A DNA stretch of 42,593 nucleotides, taken from contig CAZLGF010000001.1 of assembly GCA_964558955.1 (NCBI GenBank), forward strand, positions 10,372 through 52,964, read 5' to 3'. Below are positions 56-13,721 of this stretch, piece by piece. Under the pieces are notes generated by a model that did no database searches, was not told the origin of the DNA, and saw nothing but the letters and a program-made list of their open reading frames with translations. Positions within the stretch are counted from its first letter, which is position 1. Every line of letters begins with the position of its first letter. This DNA comes from an uncultured Coriobacteriaceae bacterium (GTDB lineage Bacteria > Actinomycetota > Coriobacteriia > Coriobacteriales > Coriobacteriaceae). A program made the position numbers and the translations under genes.

Positions 56-133
56 ACATTCCTAATGGACACCTATGGTGATCCTGCGAGGTTCGCCTGA
101 CCTCGCGAGCGACAAGAGGGGAAAGGGGAGTTG

Positions 134-1471
134 ATGTTCTCTCTGCACAAGACGCTGGGCGGTGTGCATCCGCCCCAGTGCAAGGACACGCGTGACTGCG
201 CGGTCACGACCCTCGCTCCGCCCGATCGCGTGCGCATTCCGCTCAACATGCACATCGGCGCCCCCGACACGCCCTGCGTGTCCGTGGGCGATCACGTGTA
301 TATCGGCACGCTCATCGGTGACGGGGAAGGGCTGTGCGCGCCCATTCACGCGAGCATCTCGGGAACGGTGACCTCGGTCGCCACCGAGACGCTGCCCACC
401 GGCCAGACCGCTCCCGTGGTGGAGATCACCTCGGACGGCGCGATGGAGGTCGATCCGTCGCTCACGGTTCCCACGTATGAGACGCGCGACGAGTTCATCG
501 CGTGCGTGCGCGCGTCGGGCGTGGTGGGCTTGGGCGGCGCCTCGTTCCCGTCATGGTTCAAGATGAAGGCTCCCGCGGGCAAGAGCTTCGAGTTCGTCGT
601 CGTCAACGGCATGGAGTGCGAGCCCTTCATCACCAGCGACTTCCGTCAGATGATCGAGCACGCCGAGCGCGTGATCGACGGCGTGGTGCGCATCGCGCGG
701 GCGCTCGAGATCCCCGCGGCCGTGATCGGCGTGGAGGACAACAAGCCCGAGGCCATCGAGATCCTGCAGCAGACCATCACCGAGAAGGGCGTGGGCGACC
801 TCGTCGAGGTCATGGGCGTTCCCACCAAGTACCCGGCCGGCGGCGAGAAGGTTCTCATCGAGGCGACCACGGGCCGGGCGGTCCCGGCGGGCGGGCTGCC
901 CGTCGACGCGGGCTGCCTCGTGCTCAACGTGACCACGGTCTCCAAGATCGAGGAGTACTTCCGCTACGGCGTGCCGCTCGCCCGCAAGACCGTCACCATC
1001 GCCGGTGACTGCGTGAAGAATCCCGGCAACTACCGCGTGCCGGTGGGCATGAGCGTGCACGACGTCATCGAGGCCACCGGCGGGCTCATCAAGGAGCCGC
1101 GCAAGATCATCATGGGCGGCCCCATGATGGGTCGGACCATCACCGACATCGACTGCCCCATCCTGAAGGCCAACAACGCCATCCTCTGCCTTGATGACGC
1201 GGCGGTTCTTCCCGATGAGACGCCGTGCATCCGCTGCGGCCGCTGCGTGCGCGCGTGCCCGCTCGGGCTCATGCCGTTCGCGCTCGACGCCGCCTCGCGC
1301 AGCCACGACGTGGTCAAGCTTGACGAGTACGCGGTCATGAACTGCATGGAGTGCGGATCCTGCGCCTTCACGTGCCCGGCGCACCGTCGTATCACCGCCT
1401 CGATCCGCGAGGGCAAGGGCGTCTATCGCTCCGAGGTCGCGCGGCTCACCCAGCCTGCGAAGGAGGCGTAA
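134..1471 (+). CDS. rnfC: Rnf/Rsx electron transport complex subunit C (NAD(H)/FMN-binding, 2x[4Fe-4S])
   Basis: Motifs GGVHP, HIGAP, PIHASISG, GLGGASFP, NGMECEP, KYPAGGEK, MGGPMMG and two ferredoxin motifs CIRCGRCVRACP / CMECGSCAFTCP. SD AAGGGGAG upstream; TTG at 131 is an alternative start. Confidence 0.95.
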   Translation: MFSLHKTLGGVHPPQCKDTRDCAVTTLAPPDRVRIPLNMHIGAPDTPCVSVGDHVYIGTLIGDGEGLCAPIHASISGTVTSVATETLPTGQTAPVVEITSDGAMEVDPSLTVPTYETRDEFIACVRASGVVGLGGASFPSWFKMKAPAGKSFEFVVVNGMECEPFITSDFRQMIEHAERVIDGVVRIARALEIPAAVIGVEDNKPEAIEILQQTITEKGVGDLVEVMGVPTKYPAGGEKVLIEATTGRAVPAGGLPVDAGCLVLNVTTVSKIEEYFRYGVPLARKTVTIAGDCVKNPGNYRVPVGMSVHDVIEATGGLIKEPRKIIMGGPMMGRTITDIDCPILKANNAILCLDDAAVLPDETPCIRCGRCVRACPLGLMPFALDAASRSHDVVKLDEYAVMNCMECGSCAFTCPAHRRITASIREGKGVYRSEVARLTQPAKEA

Positions 1472-1476
1472 GCGTC

Positions 1477-2409
1477 ATGGATCTGATTAACGAGGCATCG
1501 CCTCACTTCCACGGGACGTCGAGGACGCAGCGGATCATGGGCGCCGTCTGCCTGGCGCTCGCTCCCACGCTCATCGCCTCCCTGTTCCTCTACGGGCTCC
1601 GCGCCCCGCTGCTCGTGCTCGTCTGCGTCGCCACGGCGCTCGTCTGCGAGCACCTGTGCTGCATCATCATGCGGCGCGAGTCGACCGCGGGCGACCTCTC
1701 GTGCGTGGTCACGGGCATGCTTCTGGCCTTCACCCTGCCGTCGACCTGCTCGTTCGCCGTGGCTATCGCGGGCACCGTCTTCGCCGTGGTGATCGCCAAG
1801 ATGCTCTTTGGCGGCATCGGCTGCAACTTCGCCAACCCGGCGGTCGCGGGCCGCATCTTCATCATGGTGGCGTTCCCCTCCGCGCTCTCGTCCTACCCTG
1901 ACGTGGCCGGCAAGGCGCTCGACGCCATCACCGGCGCCACCCCGCTCGCCATGCTGTCATCGGGGGCCGACTCCTACAGCTATCTCGACATGCTGCTCGG
2001 CAACCATGCGGGCGCCCTGGGTGAGACCTGCATCATCACGCTGCTCGTGGGCTACCTCTTCCTGCTCGCCATCAAGGTGGTCGACGGCTGGGCGACGCTT
2101 CCCTTCATCGCGACGGTCGCCGTGATCACCGGCCTCGCCGGTGAGGACGTGGTCTATCAGCTGCTCTCGGGCGGCCTTGCGCTCGGCGCCTTCTTCATGG
2201 CGACGGACTACACCACCACGCCCATGACGCCCAAGGGCAAGATCATCTTCGGCGTGGGCTGCGGCCTCATCACCGCGCTCGTGCGCATCTTCGCCTCGGC
2301 GCCCGAGGGCGTCGCCTACTCCATCCTGTTCATGAACATGCTCGTTCCGCTGATTGATCGCTTCACGCGCTCGCAGCCGGTGGGAGGTGTCAAGCATGCC
2401 ATCGTCTAA
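1477..2409 (+). CDS. rnfD: Rnf/Rsx subunit D (membrane, covalent FMN)
   Basis: SPH start, FGGIGCNFANPA, DAITGATPL flavinylation motif, GALGET, FFMATDY, PEG. SD AAGGAGG at the end of rnfC supports ATG 1477 rather than the ORF-track start at 1351. Confidence 0.95.
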   Translation: MDLINEASPHFHGTSRTQRIMGAVCLALAPTLIASLFLYGLRAPLLVLVCVATALVCEHLCCIIMRRESTAGDLSCVVTGMLLAFTLPSTCSFAVAIAGTVFAVVIAKMLFGGIGCNFANPAVAGRIFIMVAFPSALSSYPDVAGKALDAITGATPLAMLSSGADSYSYLDMLLGNHAGALGETCIITLLVGYLFLLAIKVVDGWATLPFIATVAVITGLAGEDVVYQLLSGGLALGAFFMATDYTTTPMTPKGKIIFGVGCGLITALVRIFASAPEGVAYSILFMNMLVPLIDRFTRSQPVGGVKHAIV

Positions 2410-3055
2410 CGAGTCTTCCCGCGCGCTCACCCCTGAGGTGCCCTCCGCGGCCGAGACCGAGGCCCCGCGCCGCTCCTGGATCGCGCGGCATCGCGACAGC
2501 GCGCCCTACGCCTTCGTGGTCACGCTGCTCGCGGTCGTGATCTGCGGCACCGTCATGTCGACCGCCTACTTCGTGGGCCAGTGGGGCACGAGCGCCTTCG
2601 CCGACGCCGACGCGGTGCTTGATGAGGCGCAGGGCGGCTCCCAGCGCGCGCTGCTCTTCCCCGACGCGTCTTCGTTCGAGCAGGTTTCCGCTCCGTCCAT
2701 CGACGGCCTCAACTCGGTGTACGTGACCGAGAGCGGCGACTACGTCTTCGATGTGACCTCAACCGGCTACGGCGGCGACGTCGAGATGCTCGTGGGCATC
2801 GCGTCGGATGGCACGGTGGCCGGCATTCAGGTCATCGCCGAGAGCGAGACCGACGGCATCGGCTCCAACGCCCTCACCGAGGACTATTTCGACACGTTCA
2901 CCGGCTTGACCGCGACGGGCACCCTGACCGTTGAGGAGGCGACGGGCGACGAGACCGAGGTCGACGGCGTCTCCGGTGCCACCTACACCTCGAAGGCCGT
3001 CGTCGCGAATCTGAACATCGCCTTCGAGGCCTACGCTGAGCTGGGAGGTAACTAG
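2396..3055 (+). CDS. rnfG: Rnf/Rsx subunit G (membrane-anchored extracytosolic FMN-binding protein)
   Basis: One N-terminal TM helix, GYGG..MLVGI..DG, ESETDGIG and VDGVSGATYTSKAV flavinylation motif. SD GGGAGG; overlaps the rnfD stop. Confidence 0.9.
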   Translation: MPSSNESSRALTPEVPSAAETEAPRRSWIARHRDSAPYAFVVTLLAVVICGTVMSTAYFVGQWGTSAFADADAVLDEAQGGSQRALLFPDASSFEQVSAPSIDGLNSVYVTESGDYVFDVTSTGYGGDVEMLVGIASDGTVAGIQVIAESETDGIGSNALTEDYFDTFTGLTATGTLTVEEATGDETEVDGVSGATYTSKAVVANLNIAFEAYAELGGN

Positions 3056-3056
3056 G

Positions 3057-3710
3057 ATGGCCCTGCATGAATCAGTCGTGCGCGCGCAGAACGAGCATGC
3101 CTCCGCGCTCGTGCGCACGCCCGCCTTTCTCCTGGTCGCCGGGTCGCTCACGGGCCTCGCTGCGGCGACCTCGCTTGAGAATGGCGTCGCGATCGGCGCG
3201 GTGAGCGCGATCGCCATCGTGGTGATGGCGCTCGTCGCCCGTCCGCTTCGCGCGCTGACCGGCACGCATGCGCGCGTTCCGGTGCTCTTGCTCGTGAGCG
3301 CGACGGTGGTCGTGCTTCTCTCGTTTGCCGTGCGCGTCATCAACCCCATCGTCTATCAGGATCTCGGGTTCTACCTTCCGCTCGCCGCGGTCAACGGGCT
3401 CGTCGCGTGCTTCATCTACGATGACGGCTTCACGGCGTCGCCTGCGTCCTGCACGCCGCTCACCGCGGTCTTCGGTGGTGCCTGCACCTTCGTCACGCTC
3501 ACGATCATTGGGCTCATCAACGGCATGTTCACGACGGGCGAGATCTTCGGCCTGGTGAACGATGAGCTCGCCTCGTCGCCGATCGCGATCTTCGCCACGC
3601 CGGCGGGATCGCTGCTGCTGCTTGCGCTCGCGGCGGCGTTCGTGAACTCGGTCGTCGCGGCCTCGCTTGCGAGCCGCGCCGCGGACTCCAAGGAGGGTGA
3701 GGACCGATGA
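3057..3710 (+). CDS. rnfE: Divergent Rnf subunit E lacking both canonical Fe-S cysteines
   Basis: Operon position and hydrophobic pattern. Aligns by eye with RnfE (P.F.L..G...LA..TS..NG; R.P; LG.YLPL..VN; G.IFG; P.G..L), but G-x-C-P reads GSLT and VNC reads VNG. Confidence 0.85.
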   Translation: MALHESVVRAQNEHASALVRTPAFLLVAGSLTGLAAATSLENGVAIGAVSAIAIVVMALVARPLRALTGTHARVPVLLLVSATVVVLLSFAVRVINPIVYQDLGFYLPLAAVNGLVACFIYDDGFTASPASCTPLTAVFGGACTFVTLTIIGLINGMFTTGEIFGLVNDELASSPIAIFATPAGSLLLLALAAAFVNSVVAASLASRAADSKEGEDR

Positions 3711-4303
3711 GCGTTCTGAACGCGCTGTTCACGGCTGCCTTCGACAACAACCTCGTGTTCGCCCAGATCGTGGGCATGGTCTCGGTGCTGCTCATCGCTG
3801 AGCGTCCGCAGGACGCCATCCGCTTCGGCGGGGTGCTCGGTGCGGCGTGCTTCATCGCGGGGCTCGTGGGCTGGCCGATCTACACGTACTACCTGTCCTA
3901 CTGGGGCATCACCTACATGGCGCCCGCGGTGCACCTCGTGGTGAGCGCGGCGGTGATCTTCATGGTCGGCGCCATCAAGATCGCGATGAAGCCGGATGTT
4001 GACCGCGCCCGCGTCGTGCGCGCGTGCGTCCTGCTGGCGATCAACGCGGCGGTGCTCGCGGTGCCGCTCTCGCTCGCGGATTCGACCGACGTCACCACGT
4101 TCGGCGAGGCGGGGGCCACGGCCCTCGGGTCCGGCCTCGGGCTCTTCATCGCCGTGGTGCTCTTCGCGTCCATCCGCGATCGCATCGACGAGCGCCTTGT
4201 CCCACCGGTTCTGCGGGGCCTGCCGATCTCGCTGATGACTGCGGCGCTCATGGCGCTCGCTTTCACGGGCGTTTCCGGCATCGCCGGCGGACTGTTCGCG
4301 TAA
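3707..4303 (+). CDS. rnfA: Divergent Rnf subunit A lacking both canonical Fe-S cysteines
   Basis: F.NN.V at the N-terminus and the diagnostic C-terminus VLFASIRDRI....VP..LRGLPISLMTAALMALAFTG. G-x-C-P reads GMVS and TNCAVL reads INAAVL. Confidence 0.88.
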   Translation: MSVLNALFTAAFDNNLVFAQIVGMVSVLLIAERPQDAIRFGGVLGAACFIAGLVGWPIYTYYLSYWGITYMAPAVHLVVSAAVIFMVGAIKIAMKPDVDRARVVRACVLLAINAAVLAVPLSLADSTDVTTFGEAGATALGSGLGLFIAVVLFASIRDRIDERLVPPVLRGLPISLMTAALMALAFTGVSGIAGGLFA

Positions 4304-4314
4304 GGAGGCAGACC

Positions 4315-4485
4315 ATGGGAATGTATGTGGTGGCGCCCCCGGTGATCTTCACGGTGCTCATGTTCGTCCCCACCGTGGTGCTCGCGGTCGCGACGATGCT
4401 CGTGCGCCGGGCGGACCGGCTCGAGGCGCAGGCGGCCGAGCAGGCGGATGACGCCGCCGAGACGGCGGATCCCGACGCTGCGTAG
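4315..4485 (+). CDS. 56-aa single-TM protein in the rnfB position (probable RnfB membrane-anchor remnant)
   Basis: Strong SD AAGGAGG (4302-4308) overlapping the rnfA stop. Sequence MGMYVVAPPVIFTVLMFVPTVVLAVATMLVRRADRLEAQAAEQADDAAETADPDAA: hydrophobic N-half, acidic tail, no Cys. Confidence 0.7.
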   Translation: MGMYVVAPPVIFTVLMFVPTVVLAVATMLVRRADRLEAQAAEQADDAAETADPDAA

Positions 4486-11270: not shown

Positions 11271-11358
11271 TTGAGGCATGCCCGGGCGCGGGCTGCCGCG
11301 AGCGCGCGGTGGCCCGCGCCGTCGCCTTGCGGGGCGCGAGCGCACAGGGGAGGATGGC

Positions 11359-12405
11359 ATGGCTGCTCACGAGATGGTCGACGAGTACGGGCGCGGTATC
11401 ACCTATCTGCGCATCGCCGTGACCGATAAGTGCAATTATCGGTGCGTGTACTGCATGCCCGCGGAGGGCGTGCCGCCGCGGGCGCATGATGAGCTGCTGT
11501 CCGCCGAGGAGATCGCGCGCTTCGTGCGCGCGGTGGCGCGCGAGGGCGTGCGCCGCGTGCGCCTGACGGGCGGGGAGCCGCTCGTCTCCCATCGCATCGT
11601 TCCGCTCGTCCGCGCCATCCGGGCGATCCCCGAGATCGAGGACATCGCGCTCACCACGAACGGGGCGCTGCTGCCCGCGCTCGCGCCCGAGCTCAAGGCG
11701 GCGGGGCTCGACCGGGTGAACATCTCGCTCGACACGCTCGACCCCGCGCAGTTCACCCAGATCACGCGCATCGGCCGCCTCGAGCAGACGCTCCAGGGCA
11801 TCGATGCGGCGCTTGCGCACGGATTTGATCCGGTGAAGGTCAACTGCGTGGTGGTGCGCCGGCTGAACCAGGACGTGCTCGGCCTGGCGCGGCTCTCGAT
11901 CGACAGGCCGGTGCACGTGCGGTTCATCGAGTACATGCCCATCGGCGACGAGCGCACGAGCTCGGGATGCGCCGTCGACCCGCATGACGCGCACGTCGAC
12001 GCGGCGGTGTGGGACGCGAGCGACACGGTGCCCTCGTTTGAGCTGGCGGAGCGGATCTCGCGCGCCGGTGAGGCCGCGGGCCTGGGCGCGCTCGAGGAAG
12101 CTGAGGGGCCAAACGGAGCCGGTCCCGCGCGCTACCTGCGCTTTTCGGGGGCGCAGGGAACGGTGGGGTTCATCTCGGCGATGTCGGACCACTTCTGCGC
12201 GACGTGCAACCGGATGCGGCTCACCGCCGACGGCGCCATCCGGCCGTGTTTGTTCTCGGATGATGAGTACGTGGTGCGCGACGCCCTGCGCGCCGGCGAT
12301 GACGAGCGCGTTCGTGCCGTCTGGCGCACGGCGGTCAGCCACAAGCCCGAGGAGCACGAGGTCATCAGCGGCACCGCGCGGTTCATGTCCCAGATCGGCG
12401 GATAG
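11359..12405 (+). CDS. moaA: GTP 3',8-cyclase (Moco biosynthesis, radical SAM)
   Basis: YLRIAVTDKCNYRCVYC, RLTGGEP, NISLDT, C-terminal CATCNRMRLTADG...C cluster and terminal IGG. SD GGGGAGG supports ATG 11359. Confidence 0.96.
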   Translation: MAAHEMVDEYGRGITYLRIAVTDKCNYRCVYCMPAEGVPPRAHDELLSAEEIARFVRAVAREGVRRVRLTGGEPLVSHRIVPLVRAIRAIPEIEDIALTTNGALLPALAPELKAAGLDRVNISLDTLDPAQFTQITRIGRLEQTLQGIDAALAHGFDPVKVNCVVVRRLNQDVLGLARLSIDRPVHVRFIEYMPIGDERTSSGCAVDPHDAHVDAAVWDASDTVPSFELAERISRAGEAAGLGALEEAEGPNGAGPARYLRFSGAQGTVGFISAMSDHFCATCNRMRLTADGAIRPCLFSDDEYVVRDALRAGDDERVRAVWRTAVSHKPEEHEVISGTARFMSQIGG

Positions 12406-12557
12406 GGGCGCCGCGGCCGCCGGGGTCGTGAGGTGGCGGGCGCGCGGCGTGACGGGCGCGCGCGAGATGTGCTAGCGTGAGGTCGATTCGCAGCATCAGG
12501 CGCAGGCGCGGCGCCCGCGGCATCGGCCGGGCGCCGGCATCCCGAACGGAGGCACCC

Positions 12558-13721
12558 ATGACGAGCAGCGAGACCGCGCGCGACGCGTACCGCGACGAGC
12601 TCACCCACGTCGACGAGCGCGGTGACGTGCGCATGGTCGACGTGTCCGAGAAGGCTTCGACCAAGCGCGTCGCCGTGGCCGAGGCGAGCATCCTCATGCA
12701 TCCCGAGACGCAGGCCATGGTGCTTGAGGACCGCGCCAAGAAGGGCGACGTCCTTGCCTGCGCGCGCGTCGCGGGCATCATGGCCGCCAAGCGCACGAGC
12801 GACCTCATTCCCATGTGCCACCCGCTCATGCTCACCAAGAGCGCGGTCGACATCGCGCCGATCGCCGCGGACGCCACCTCCGCACCCGCCGACTGGGCTC
12901 CCGCCCGCGCCGATGGGCGCGTGGGCTTTCGCGTGCGGGCGACCTGCGGCGTCACGGGCGTCACGGGCATCGAGATGGAGGCGCTGACCGCGGCGAGCAC
13001 GGCGTGCCTCACCATCTACGACATGTGCAAGGCGGTCGATCGCGGCATGGAGATCGTCGACGTGCGGCTGCTGCGCAAGGAGGGCGGCCGCTCGGGCACC
13101 TGGGATCGCGCGGCGGCGGAGGACGGCGCTGAGGACGAGGCCGGCACCCGGGTAGGGGATGCGCCGCGTGCCGGCGTGCCTTCTGTGCCGGGAGAGTCTC
13201 CCGCTCCCGCGATCGCCTTCGTCGGCTACCAGAACGCGGGCAAGACGACGCTCGTCGAGCGCGTCATCACCGAGCTCACGCGCGCGGGCGTGCGCGTCGG
13301 CACGGTGAAGCACCATGGTCACGCCGGTTTCGACATCGACGTGCCCGGCAAGGACTCGTGGCGCCACGCGCAGGCGGGCAGCCGGCACGTGGGGCTCATC
13401 TGCGCCGATCGTTACGCCGAGTACGCCGACACCGCCGCGGAGCTGCCGCTCGACGAGCTGCTCGCGCGCTACACGGACGTCGACGTGGTGCTGGTCGAGG
13501 GGTACAAGGCGGCGGGGCTGCCCAACGTGGTGGTCGCGCGCTCGGGGGTCGACCGCATGCGCGGCGCGAGCTCGCTCGATCTGATCGACGAGCGAACCGT
13601 GGCCCTTGCCTGCAATGACGCGCTTGCCGGGCGCGTGCGCACGGGGACGCCCGTCATCAGCATCAACGACGCCGCCGCGGTGGCCGCGGCCGTCAGGGAC
13701 TGGCTCGCCCGCGCGCGATAG
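12558..13721 (+). CDS. moaC: MoaC-MobB fusion (cPMP synthase plus molybdopterin-guanine dinucleotide biosynthesis protein B)
   Basis: N-half [43 protein letters not shown]. After a linker, C-half [40 protein letters not shown] (MobB). SD GGAGG before ATG 12558. Confidence 0.9.

Follow-up and report, generated by a model that had tools for sequence, protein, structure and literature searches.

A conserved Rnf variant of gut Coriobacteriaceae that lacks RnfB and the RnfA/RnfE iron-sulfur ligands, and its candidate WOR41 partner

Introduction

What can an Rnf complex do once the metal centre in its membrane core has lost its ligands? The question is raised by a stretch of 42,593 nt from contig CAZLGF010000001.1 (assembly GCA_964558955.1, an uncultured Coriobacteriaceae bacterium), here called the window, which begins with rnfC, rnfD, rnfG, rnfE, rnfA and a 56-codon ORF, followed by ligA. 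In the Rnf architecture, as laid out in the available text of PMC12174285, a path from NAD(H) through RnfC and RnfD to RnfG ends on the outer face of the membrane. Four cysteines, C25 and C113 of RnfA and C25 and C108 of RnfE, coordinate the [2Fe-2S] cluster within the membrane, and in A. woodii the absence of these cysteines abolished both Fd:NAD+ activity and growth (PMC11889175, available text). The original prediction for the window was that all four of these positions are occupied by other residues.

Results

Operon and samples

The genes at the start of the window were assigned as follows.

131..1471, + strand: rnfC (TIGR01945, 440.6 bits against a cut-off of 246; full-length alignment to 7zc6_C/9eri_C)
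1477..2409, + strand: rnfD (TIGR01946, 267.6 bits against a cut-off of 207)
2396..3055, + strand: rnfG, a membrane-anchored FMN carrier (PF04205, above cut-off)
3057..3710, + strand: rnfE without Fe-S ligands (39 bits against an NCBIfam cut-off of 213; assigned with phmmer)
3707..4303, + strand: rnfA without Fe-S ligands (86 bits against an NCBIfam cut-off of 229; assigned with phmmer)
4315..4485, + strand: mini-B, a 56-aa single-helix ORF in the rnfB slot, with GGAGG just upstream

We compared 46 Coriobacteriaceae operons, that is, the window and 45 loci from a genome scan (Collinsella, Enorma, Ca. Coprousia, Ca. Limicola and Coriobacteriaceae), with an outgroup of 18 hand-picked operons from the same class, Coriobacteriia. 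Gene content was surveyed in 121 Coriobacteriaceae genomes, 31 with the rnf operon (positives) and 90 without it. ORF calls were poor in the lower-GC loci L180, L181 and L084. A scan for promoters and terminators gave no signal above chance. Further along the window, at positions 14474-37744, inspection by eye points to glycoside hydrolase and PTS-like genes in an extended cluster.

Loss of the intramembrane ligands

Alignment with phmmer to 9eri and 7zc6 places four non-cysteine residues on the ligand cysteines, just as had been predicted, and both reading frames are open, in line with the claim that no frameshift is involved.

3147..3149, + strand: RnfE Leu31 (CTC), position of ligand Cys25; Leu in 46/46
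3396..3398, + strand: RnfE Gly114 (GGG), position of ligand Cys108; Gly in 17 and Ala in 29 of 46
3779..3781, + strand: RnfA Val25 (GTC), position of ligand Cys25; Val in 43, Ala in 2 and Leu in 1 of 46
4046..4048, + strand: RnfA Ala114 (GCG), position of ligand Cys113; Ala in 44, Gly in 1 and Ser in 1 of 46

The replacement of RAE by FIY and of IRE by ING in RnfE also holds on alignment. In RnfA the substitution that yields CVLL is real, but it had been mapped to YLPL, and the aligned motif is LPLI, one residue off. None of the 46 operons has a cysteine at any of the four columns, whereas all 18 outgroup operons have all four, so chance and assembly error can both be rejected as the source of the loss.

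An alternative metal site built from other cysteines, which the original prediction had allowed for, is made unlikely by the comparison, given that neither RnfE nor RnfA has a near-invariant Cys or His column. The leftover cysteines of RnfE are kept in 33 (C143), 3 (C118) and 1 (C132) of the 46 operons and those of RnfA in 37 (C107) and 10 (C48), and eight of the 46 pairs have only three cysteines in total. Since the leftover cysteines vary and these pairs have too few of them, a replacement four-cysteine site cannot be general. Most residues of the Na+ path of Rnf are likewise gone from the family: the equivalents of RnfE E115 (Y121 in the window) and of RnfA E88, T110 and T111 occur in 0/46 operons, and the equivalent of RnfE R67 (Arg73 in the window) is retained in 33/46. 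RnfE R67 and RnfA E88, T110 and T111 are present in the outgroup operons (n = 18).

RnfA and RnfE might continue to bind a metal centre with other residues, or to conduct ions, and so pump by an altered mechanism. The fair conservation of RnfE C143 and RnfA C107, the asparagine N113 kept in both subunits, the frequent retention of RnfE R73 and two new invariant polar residues in RnfA (D13 and Q20) would suit such a mechanism. We nevertheless consider it very improbable, as no Cys or His is invariant, the four path residues are lost in 46/46 operons, and there is no RnfB Fe-S domain to feed a centre.

The further suggestion that the cofactor was lost and the fold kept is supported by an AF2 model of RnfA (pLDDT 70), whose best Foldseek match is 9eri_A (TM 0.72), and by dN/dS values of 0.15 for both RnfE and RnfA. 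In the model the helices run through the ligand sites without a break, which is uninformative because a canonical control folded likewise shows the same. Among 251 genomes sampled across the class, 91 have a PF02508 match, and the best matches are weak in Coriobacteriaceae only. In FastTree trees that include 12 of the 46 in-group rows, RnfC and RnfA of the family adjoin the canonical operons L164, L165 and L174, and the stem branch measures 1.46 for RnfA against 0.40 for RnfC. A second, canonical rnf copy was considered and ruled out: each of the 31 positives has exactly two PF02508 matches, which leaves no canonical second A/E pair.

The rnfB slot

In 17 of the 18 outgroup loci, rnfA is followed by a Cys-rich RnfB of 267-310 aa (no ORF was called there in L171). 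The same slot in the family holds the single-helix ORF that we call mini-B, 43-69 aa long and present in 45/46 operons (43 at first pass and two via another start). Displacement of rnfB to another part of the genome was also ruled out, given that no TIGR01944 match above cut-off was found in any of the 121 family genomes (5 of 14 controls have one). Mini-B has a dN/dS of 0.23. In a profile comparison it resembles the RnfB helix weakly (probability 33%), and a search for a longer homologue found none; from its position, it is likely a remnant membrane anchor of RnfB. In one locus (L084, 6601-6770) mini-B looks decayed: ATA stands at the start position of its relatives and the helix is less hydrophobic. 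RnfA and RnfE are open there.

An intact flavin half under selection

The cofactor sites of the other half of the complex are preserved. RnfC, the NAD(H)/FMN subunit, is intact, and its eight Fe-S cysteines (two [4Fe-4S] clusters) are invariant in 46/46 operons, as are the FMN-bearing Thr155 and the riboflavin residues Asn120 and Asp244 of RnfD; the motifs at the flavin site of RnfC vary little or not at all. RnfG keeps its flavinylation residue Thr196 and also Tyr125 (the [ST]GAT motif and the tyrosine are found in 45/45 loci) and is the sole FMN_bind match in each of the 31 positives. The start of RnfG was miscalled in 10 of the 45 loci, which were excluded from the outgroup comparison and from dN/dS; on recheck the alignment of these 10 crosses a stop, and we take the actual start to be downstream of it. 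In 31/31 genomes the FMN domain itself is free of stops.

Could the operon be a decaying relic? The long stem branch of RnfA, the repeated loss of the operon within the family and the apparently decayed mini-B of L084 point that way. Against this, the frames of rnfC, rnfD, rnfE and rnfA are open and of normal length in 46/46 operons, the cofactor sites are invariant, and pooled dN/dS values are 0.12 (C), 0.09 (D), 0.15 (G), 0.15 (E) and 0.15 (A) over 15 close pairs (12 for G). Decay is thus already largely refuted, and we give it almost no weight.

The inventory of cofactor sites points to one remaining path, NAD(H) - RnfC - RnfD - RnfG. It is very probable, in our judgement, that the complex acts as a one-armed wire with cofactor-free RnfA and RnfE.

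ApbE was found in 38/121 genomes, including all 31 positives, most of which have two copies. In genome G000, a Tat-lipoprotein ApbE adjoins an EetB-family gene and ECF transporter genes (C2:13400-19780, L101; an assembly gap cuts the ApbE), and a second ApbE lies at C30:1924-2808; the EetB-family/ApbE comparison draws on the available text of PMC9973259. A different flavinylation locus (L355, G077:C11:273600-281800) encodes a Tp47/FMN_bind protein, multi-FMN_bind proteins, a NapH-like Fer4_5 protein and ApbE. With matches in G028 and G104, this type of locus occurs in three rnf-negative genomes.

A WOR41 enzyme and a cytochrome as candidate partner

A second operon, on the minus strand in genome G000 (C26:7961-11705, L100), encodes a Tat Fe-S protein, a YdhV/WOR41 enzyme and a Cgr1-like membrane-anchored cytochrome. 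The large subunit, WorL, scores 971.5 bits with PRK09849 (cut-off 868), and its placement in clade 41 comes from this YdhV model rather than from a tree. WorS is a YdhY-like 4Fe-4S subunit with a twin-Arg (Tat) motif, and the cytochrome has five haem-type motifs, two of them with non-canonical spacings. A NifU_N-like gene and a divergent membrane LuxR regulator precede the operon. The core order of Fe-S protein, WOR41 and cytochrome is the same in 5/5 family loci, with the cytochrome directly after worL. In the window, moaA and a moaC-mobB fusion (11278-13721) lie 7 kb downstream of the rnf operon; they belong to pterin cofactor synthesis of the kind that WOR41 would need.

WorL and the cytochrome are found in the same 31/121 genomes as the rnf operon and in 0/90 others, although the worL and rnf operons are unlinked and not neighbours. 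Because of kinship the 31/90 split does not represent independent counts: on a quick LigA tree of 45/121 genomes (29 positive, 16 negative) it takes about four changes, two of them forced by well-supported branches. On the same tree the rnf losses fall in several lineages. No trace of rnf was found in the htrA-ligA interval of 11/11 negative loci, where the gap is within 0.7 kb in nine and holds 1.3 kb and 4.3 kb of other DNA in the remaining two. Haem-c maturation genes were present in 5/5 positives and in 0/5 genomes from loss lineages. We compared the match with control genes, which do not follow the pattern: Ech-type hydrogenase is found in 115/121 genomes, TatC in 5/5 and 5/5, MoeA in 2/5 negatives and ApbE more widely than rnf, and UbiA is also off-pattern. 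An Ech-type membrane hydrogenase operon lies at G000:C9:8568-14420 (L102). This type of hydrogenase, without a match in four positives, could oxidise ferredoxin in place of Rnf.

For the most part there can be no quinone link, since 22 of the 31 positives have no UbiA-family gene; the 12 genomes of the window's genus all lack one. In those 22 genomes the cytochrome and WOR41 would thus have no other evident link to the cytoplasm. The presence of a UbiA-family gene in the other nine positives counts against a quinone-free wire, and five of six UbiA-family copies checked in the family are MenA.

WOR41 is not confined to genomes with Rnf. In another family (f3, probably Eggerthellaceae, which is a guess), close WOR41 orthologues occur in 22/33 genomes and Rnf in 4/33, so WOR41 does not generally depend on Rnf. 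There, no multihaem ORF was called beside worL in nine loci, against 5/5 family loci with the cytochrome, and UbiA-family genes are present in 6/6 genomes. In 6/9 of these loci worS adjoins an ORF of roughly 750-950 aa with a Tat motif, read, without a family scan, as a putative molybdoenzyme. The contrast fits a family-specific rewiring in Coriobacteriaceae. A complex prediction for the RnfG domain and the cytochrome scored 0.00; it used single sequences only and speaks neither for nor against contact.

Discussion

Electron flow and its direction

The co-inheritance of WOR41 and the cytochrome with the rnf operon supports them as candidate partners of the remaining flavin path. The reading that we prefer, at a probability of roughly 40%, is that RnfB was reduced and the RnfA/RnfE cysteines were lost, and that the retained flavin arm forms a non-pumping wire which connects NAD(H) with the surface enzyme WOR41 via the cytochrome. 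In this scheme WOR41 would be exported along with its Tat-bearing Fe-S subunit and oxidise a low-potential substrate outside the cell. Electrons would pass from the Fe-S subunit to the cytochrome, the FMN of RnfG, the FMN and riboflavin of RnfD, and the Fe-S clusters and FMN of RnfC before reaching NAD+, and such an inbound flow would follow the normal direction of the RnfC-D-G half. With protons released outside and charge moved inward, the membrane would be energised by a redox loop that needs no ion channel. RnfA, RnfE and mini-B would stay as a scaffold for RnfG and RnfD.

Class V enzymes make up more than 10% of the WOR family and have no known function; a second pyranopterin subunit is also mentioned, and partly purified CsWOR41L, without its S subunit, was inactive on 46 aldehydes (PMC13328260, available text). 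The lack of any Class V WOR with a known reaction, the presence of WOR41 without Rnf in the other family, the separate location of the two operons and the small number of changes behind the 31/90 split all count against the wire. It also counts against inbound flow that a fermenter would gain NADH in need of disposal.

The same wiring evidence would serve a wire that runs outward, from NADH through RnfC-D-G to the cytochrome, with WOR41 or a Cgr1/Cgr2-like flavin reductase as terminal reductase; the cell would gain an outside electron sink and spend membrane potential. Consistent with this are the pairing of a cytochrome with a Tat FAD-reductase in 5/31 positives, the putative molybdoenzyme next to worS in the other family, and the outward flow proposed for two-subunit NQR/RNF-like systems (PMC8238504, PMC11334425, available text of both). 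CsWOR41L, for which no aldehyde oxidation is reported in the available text of PMC13328260, fits as well, whereas the same text describes Class I-II WORs as aldehyde-oxidising. Other points against an outward wire are a complete genome (G005) without a FAD_binding_2 reductase at E<=1e-20, and the dissipation of potential to be expected from charge moved outward. We rate outward flow as rather unlikely, if well worth keeping in view.

The potential of the acid/aldehyde couple lies well below that of NAD+/NADH. Given this, the aldehyde oxidation by Class I-II WORs and the normal direction of the retained half, the inbound direction is probably to be favoured over the outbound one by a small margin.

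Another Cgr1-like cytochrome is encoded at G000:C94:1918-4465 (L099), where the next gene is a Tat lipoprotein FAD_binding_2 reductase. This second cytochrome occurs in 5/121 genomes, all with the rnf operon, and suits outward flow.

A one-armed wire from NAD(H) to the surface could also serve a different partner, such as MenA-derived demethylmenaquinone, soluble flavins or Fe(III), with the joint loss of WOR41 reflecting a shared niche or cofactor supply. The small number of independent losses on the tree leaves room for this, as do the independence of WOR41 from Rnf in the other family, MenA in some positives, and Cys-less RnfA in about 44 unrelated 50%-clusters. It is harder to reconcile with the exact match of two unlinked operons, which the controls ApbE, Ech and UbiA fail to reproduce, and with the 22 genomes in which the cytochrome and WOR41 would be cut off from the cytoplasm. 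A different partner is an unlikely explanation in our view.

Comparison with known systems

The family operon shares with canonical RnfABCDGE (A. woodii 9eri, C. tetanomorphum 7zc6, A. vinelandii 8ahx) the gene order CDGEA(B), the cofactor sites of C, D and G, and the RnfA fold. It differs in the missing A/E [2Fe-2S] ligands, an RnfB of one helix and the loss of most Na+ residues. Judging from the A. woodii results in the available text of PMC11889175, the complex should neither catalyse Fd:NAD+ oxidoreduction nor pump by the published mechanism.

Two-subunit NQR/RNF-like systems resemble the family complex in having a single transmembrane path, made of RnfD-like and RnfG-like proteins and proposed to run one way from NAD(P)H to the surface (PMC8238504, PMC11334425, available text). 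In those systems an NqrF-type PF00175 domain is fused to RnfD, the RnfD flavinylation threonine is missing, and there is no C, A or E (same sources and extent). The family RnfD, in contrast, is an unfused protein of 310 aa with PF03116 only and Thr155 in 46/46 operons, and RnfC, RnfE, RnfA and mini-B are present.

MmcA-Rnf of Methanosarcina acetivorans likewise places a multihaem c-type cytochrome in electron flow on the outer side of Rnf; there, mmcA lies inside the rnf operon, and electrons flow from ferredoxin to methanophenazine or to outside acceptors (PMC11024163, available text). The family has instead lost the ferredoxin arm, and its Cgr1-like cytochrome is unlinked and lies with worL; no multihaem cytochrome gene was found in the rnf operon neighbourhoods.

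Na+-NQR is derived from Rnf by loss of RnfB, and NqrF may hold the former RnfB helix (PMC4014512, available text). In NQR the D/E [2Fe-2S] arm survives and RnfC has been degraded to NqrA, whereas in the family complex RnfC survives and the A/E arm has been degraded. The window operon is not NQR: nqr models score below cut-off, and no NqrF-sized gene follows rnfA. The family partner resembles Class V (clade 41) WOR and E. coli YdhVY, as presented in the available text of PMC13328260, in its WorL above the PRK09849 cut-off and its Tat YdhY-like subunit. It differs in its membrane link, a Cgr1-like cytochrome with five haem-type motifs, and that text has no mention of Rnf.

By gene content and key residues, we place the family operon outside canonical Rnf, NQR/RNF-like systems, NQR and MmcA-Rnf, and suggest that it works like the NQR/RNF-like proposal. 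Our literature search found no description of a Cys-less, RnfB-less Rnf or of an Rnf-WOR41 link; most subscription papers and supplements lie outside its range, and relevant material may exist in the gene-cluster tables that accompany PMC8238504 and in the operon figures of PMC13328260.

Cys-less RnfA in other lineages

Loss of the RnfA cysteines seems to be recurrent across lineages. Among the best 150 representatives of 50%-clusters of RnfA, both cysteines are present in 55, neither in 50, and one is lost in 29; 16 are partial. About 44 of the 50 clusters without either cysteine lie outside Coriobacteriaceae (P0134-P0270), one of them labelled Porticoccaceae; the query profile favours Cys-less matches, some of which may be decayed. 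A metagenome scan with P0171 as the query returned canonical loci in 80/80 cases.

Implications

The Cys-less, RnfB-less operon is, on comparative sequence evidence, real, conserved and selected, an Rnf variant with a concrete candidate partner. Such operons are annotated as ordinary Rnf, so that metabolic models would wrongly credit these gut bacteria with ferredoxin-driven ion pumping. The operon is a natural dissection of Rnf in which the G-D-C half is kept and the B-A/E half deleted, the complement of what happened in NQR. With it, one could test directly which half carries charge and whether RnfG can exchange electrons with outside partners, and it opens a physiological route to Class V WORs in cultured Collinsella species such as Collinsella stercoris and C. 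tanakaei.

From the perspective of evolution, we tentatively suggest that gut Coriobacteriaceae turned an Rnf pump into a quinone-free redox loop that leads from a surface Mo/W enzyme through a pentahaem cytochrome and the flavin half to NAD+, and that cofactor-less RnfA/E in other lineages represent repeated versions of this change; we hold this broader idea to be possible but doubtful. If the redox-loop reading is true, these bacteria would energise their membrane with no ion channel and without quinones.
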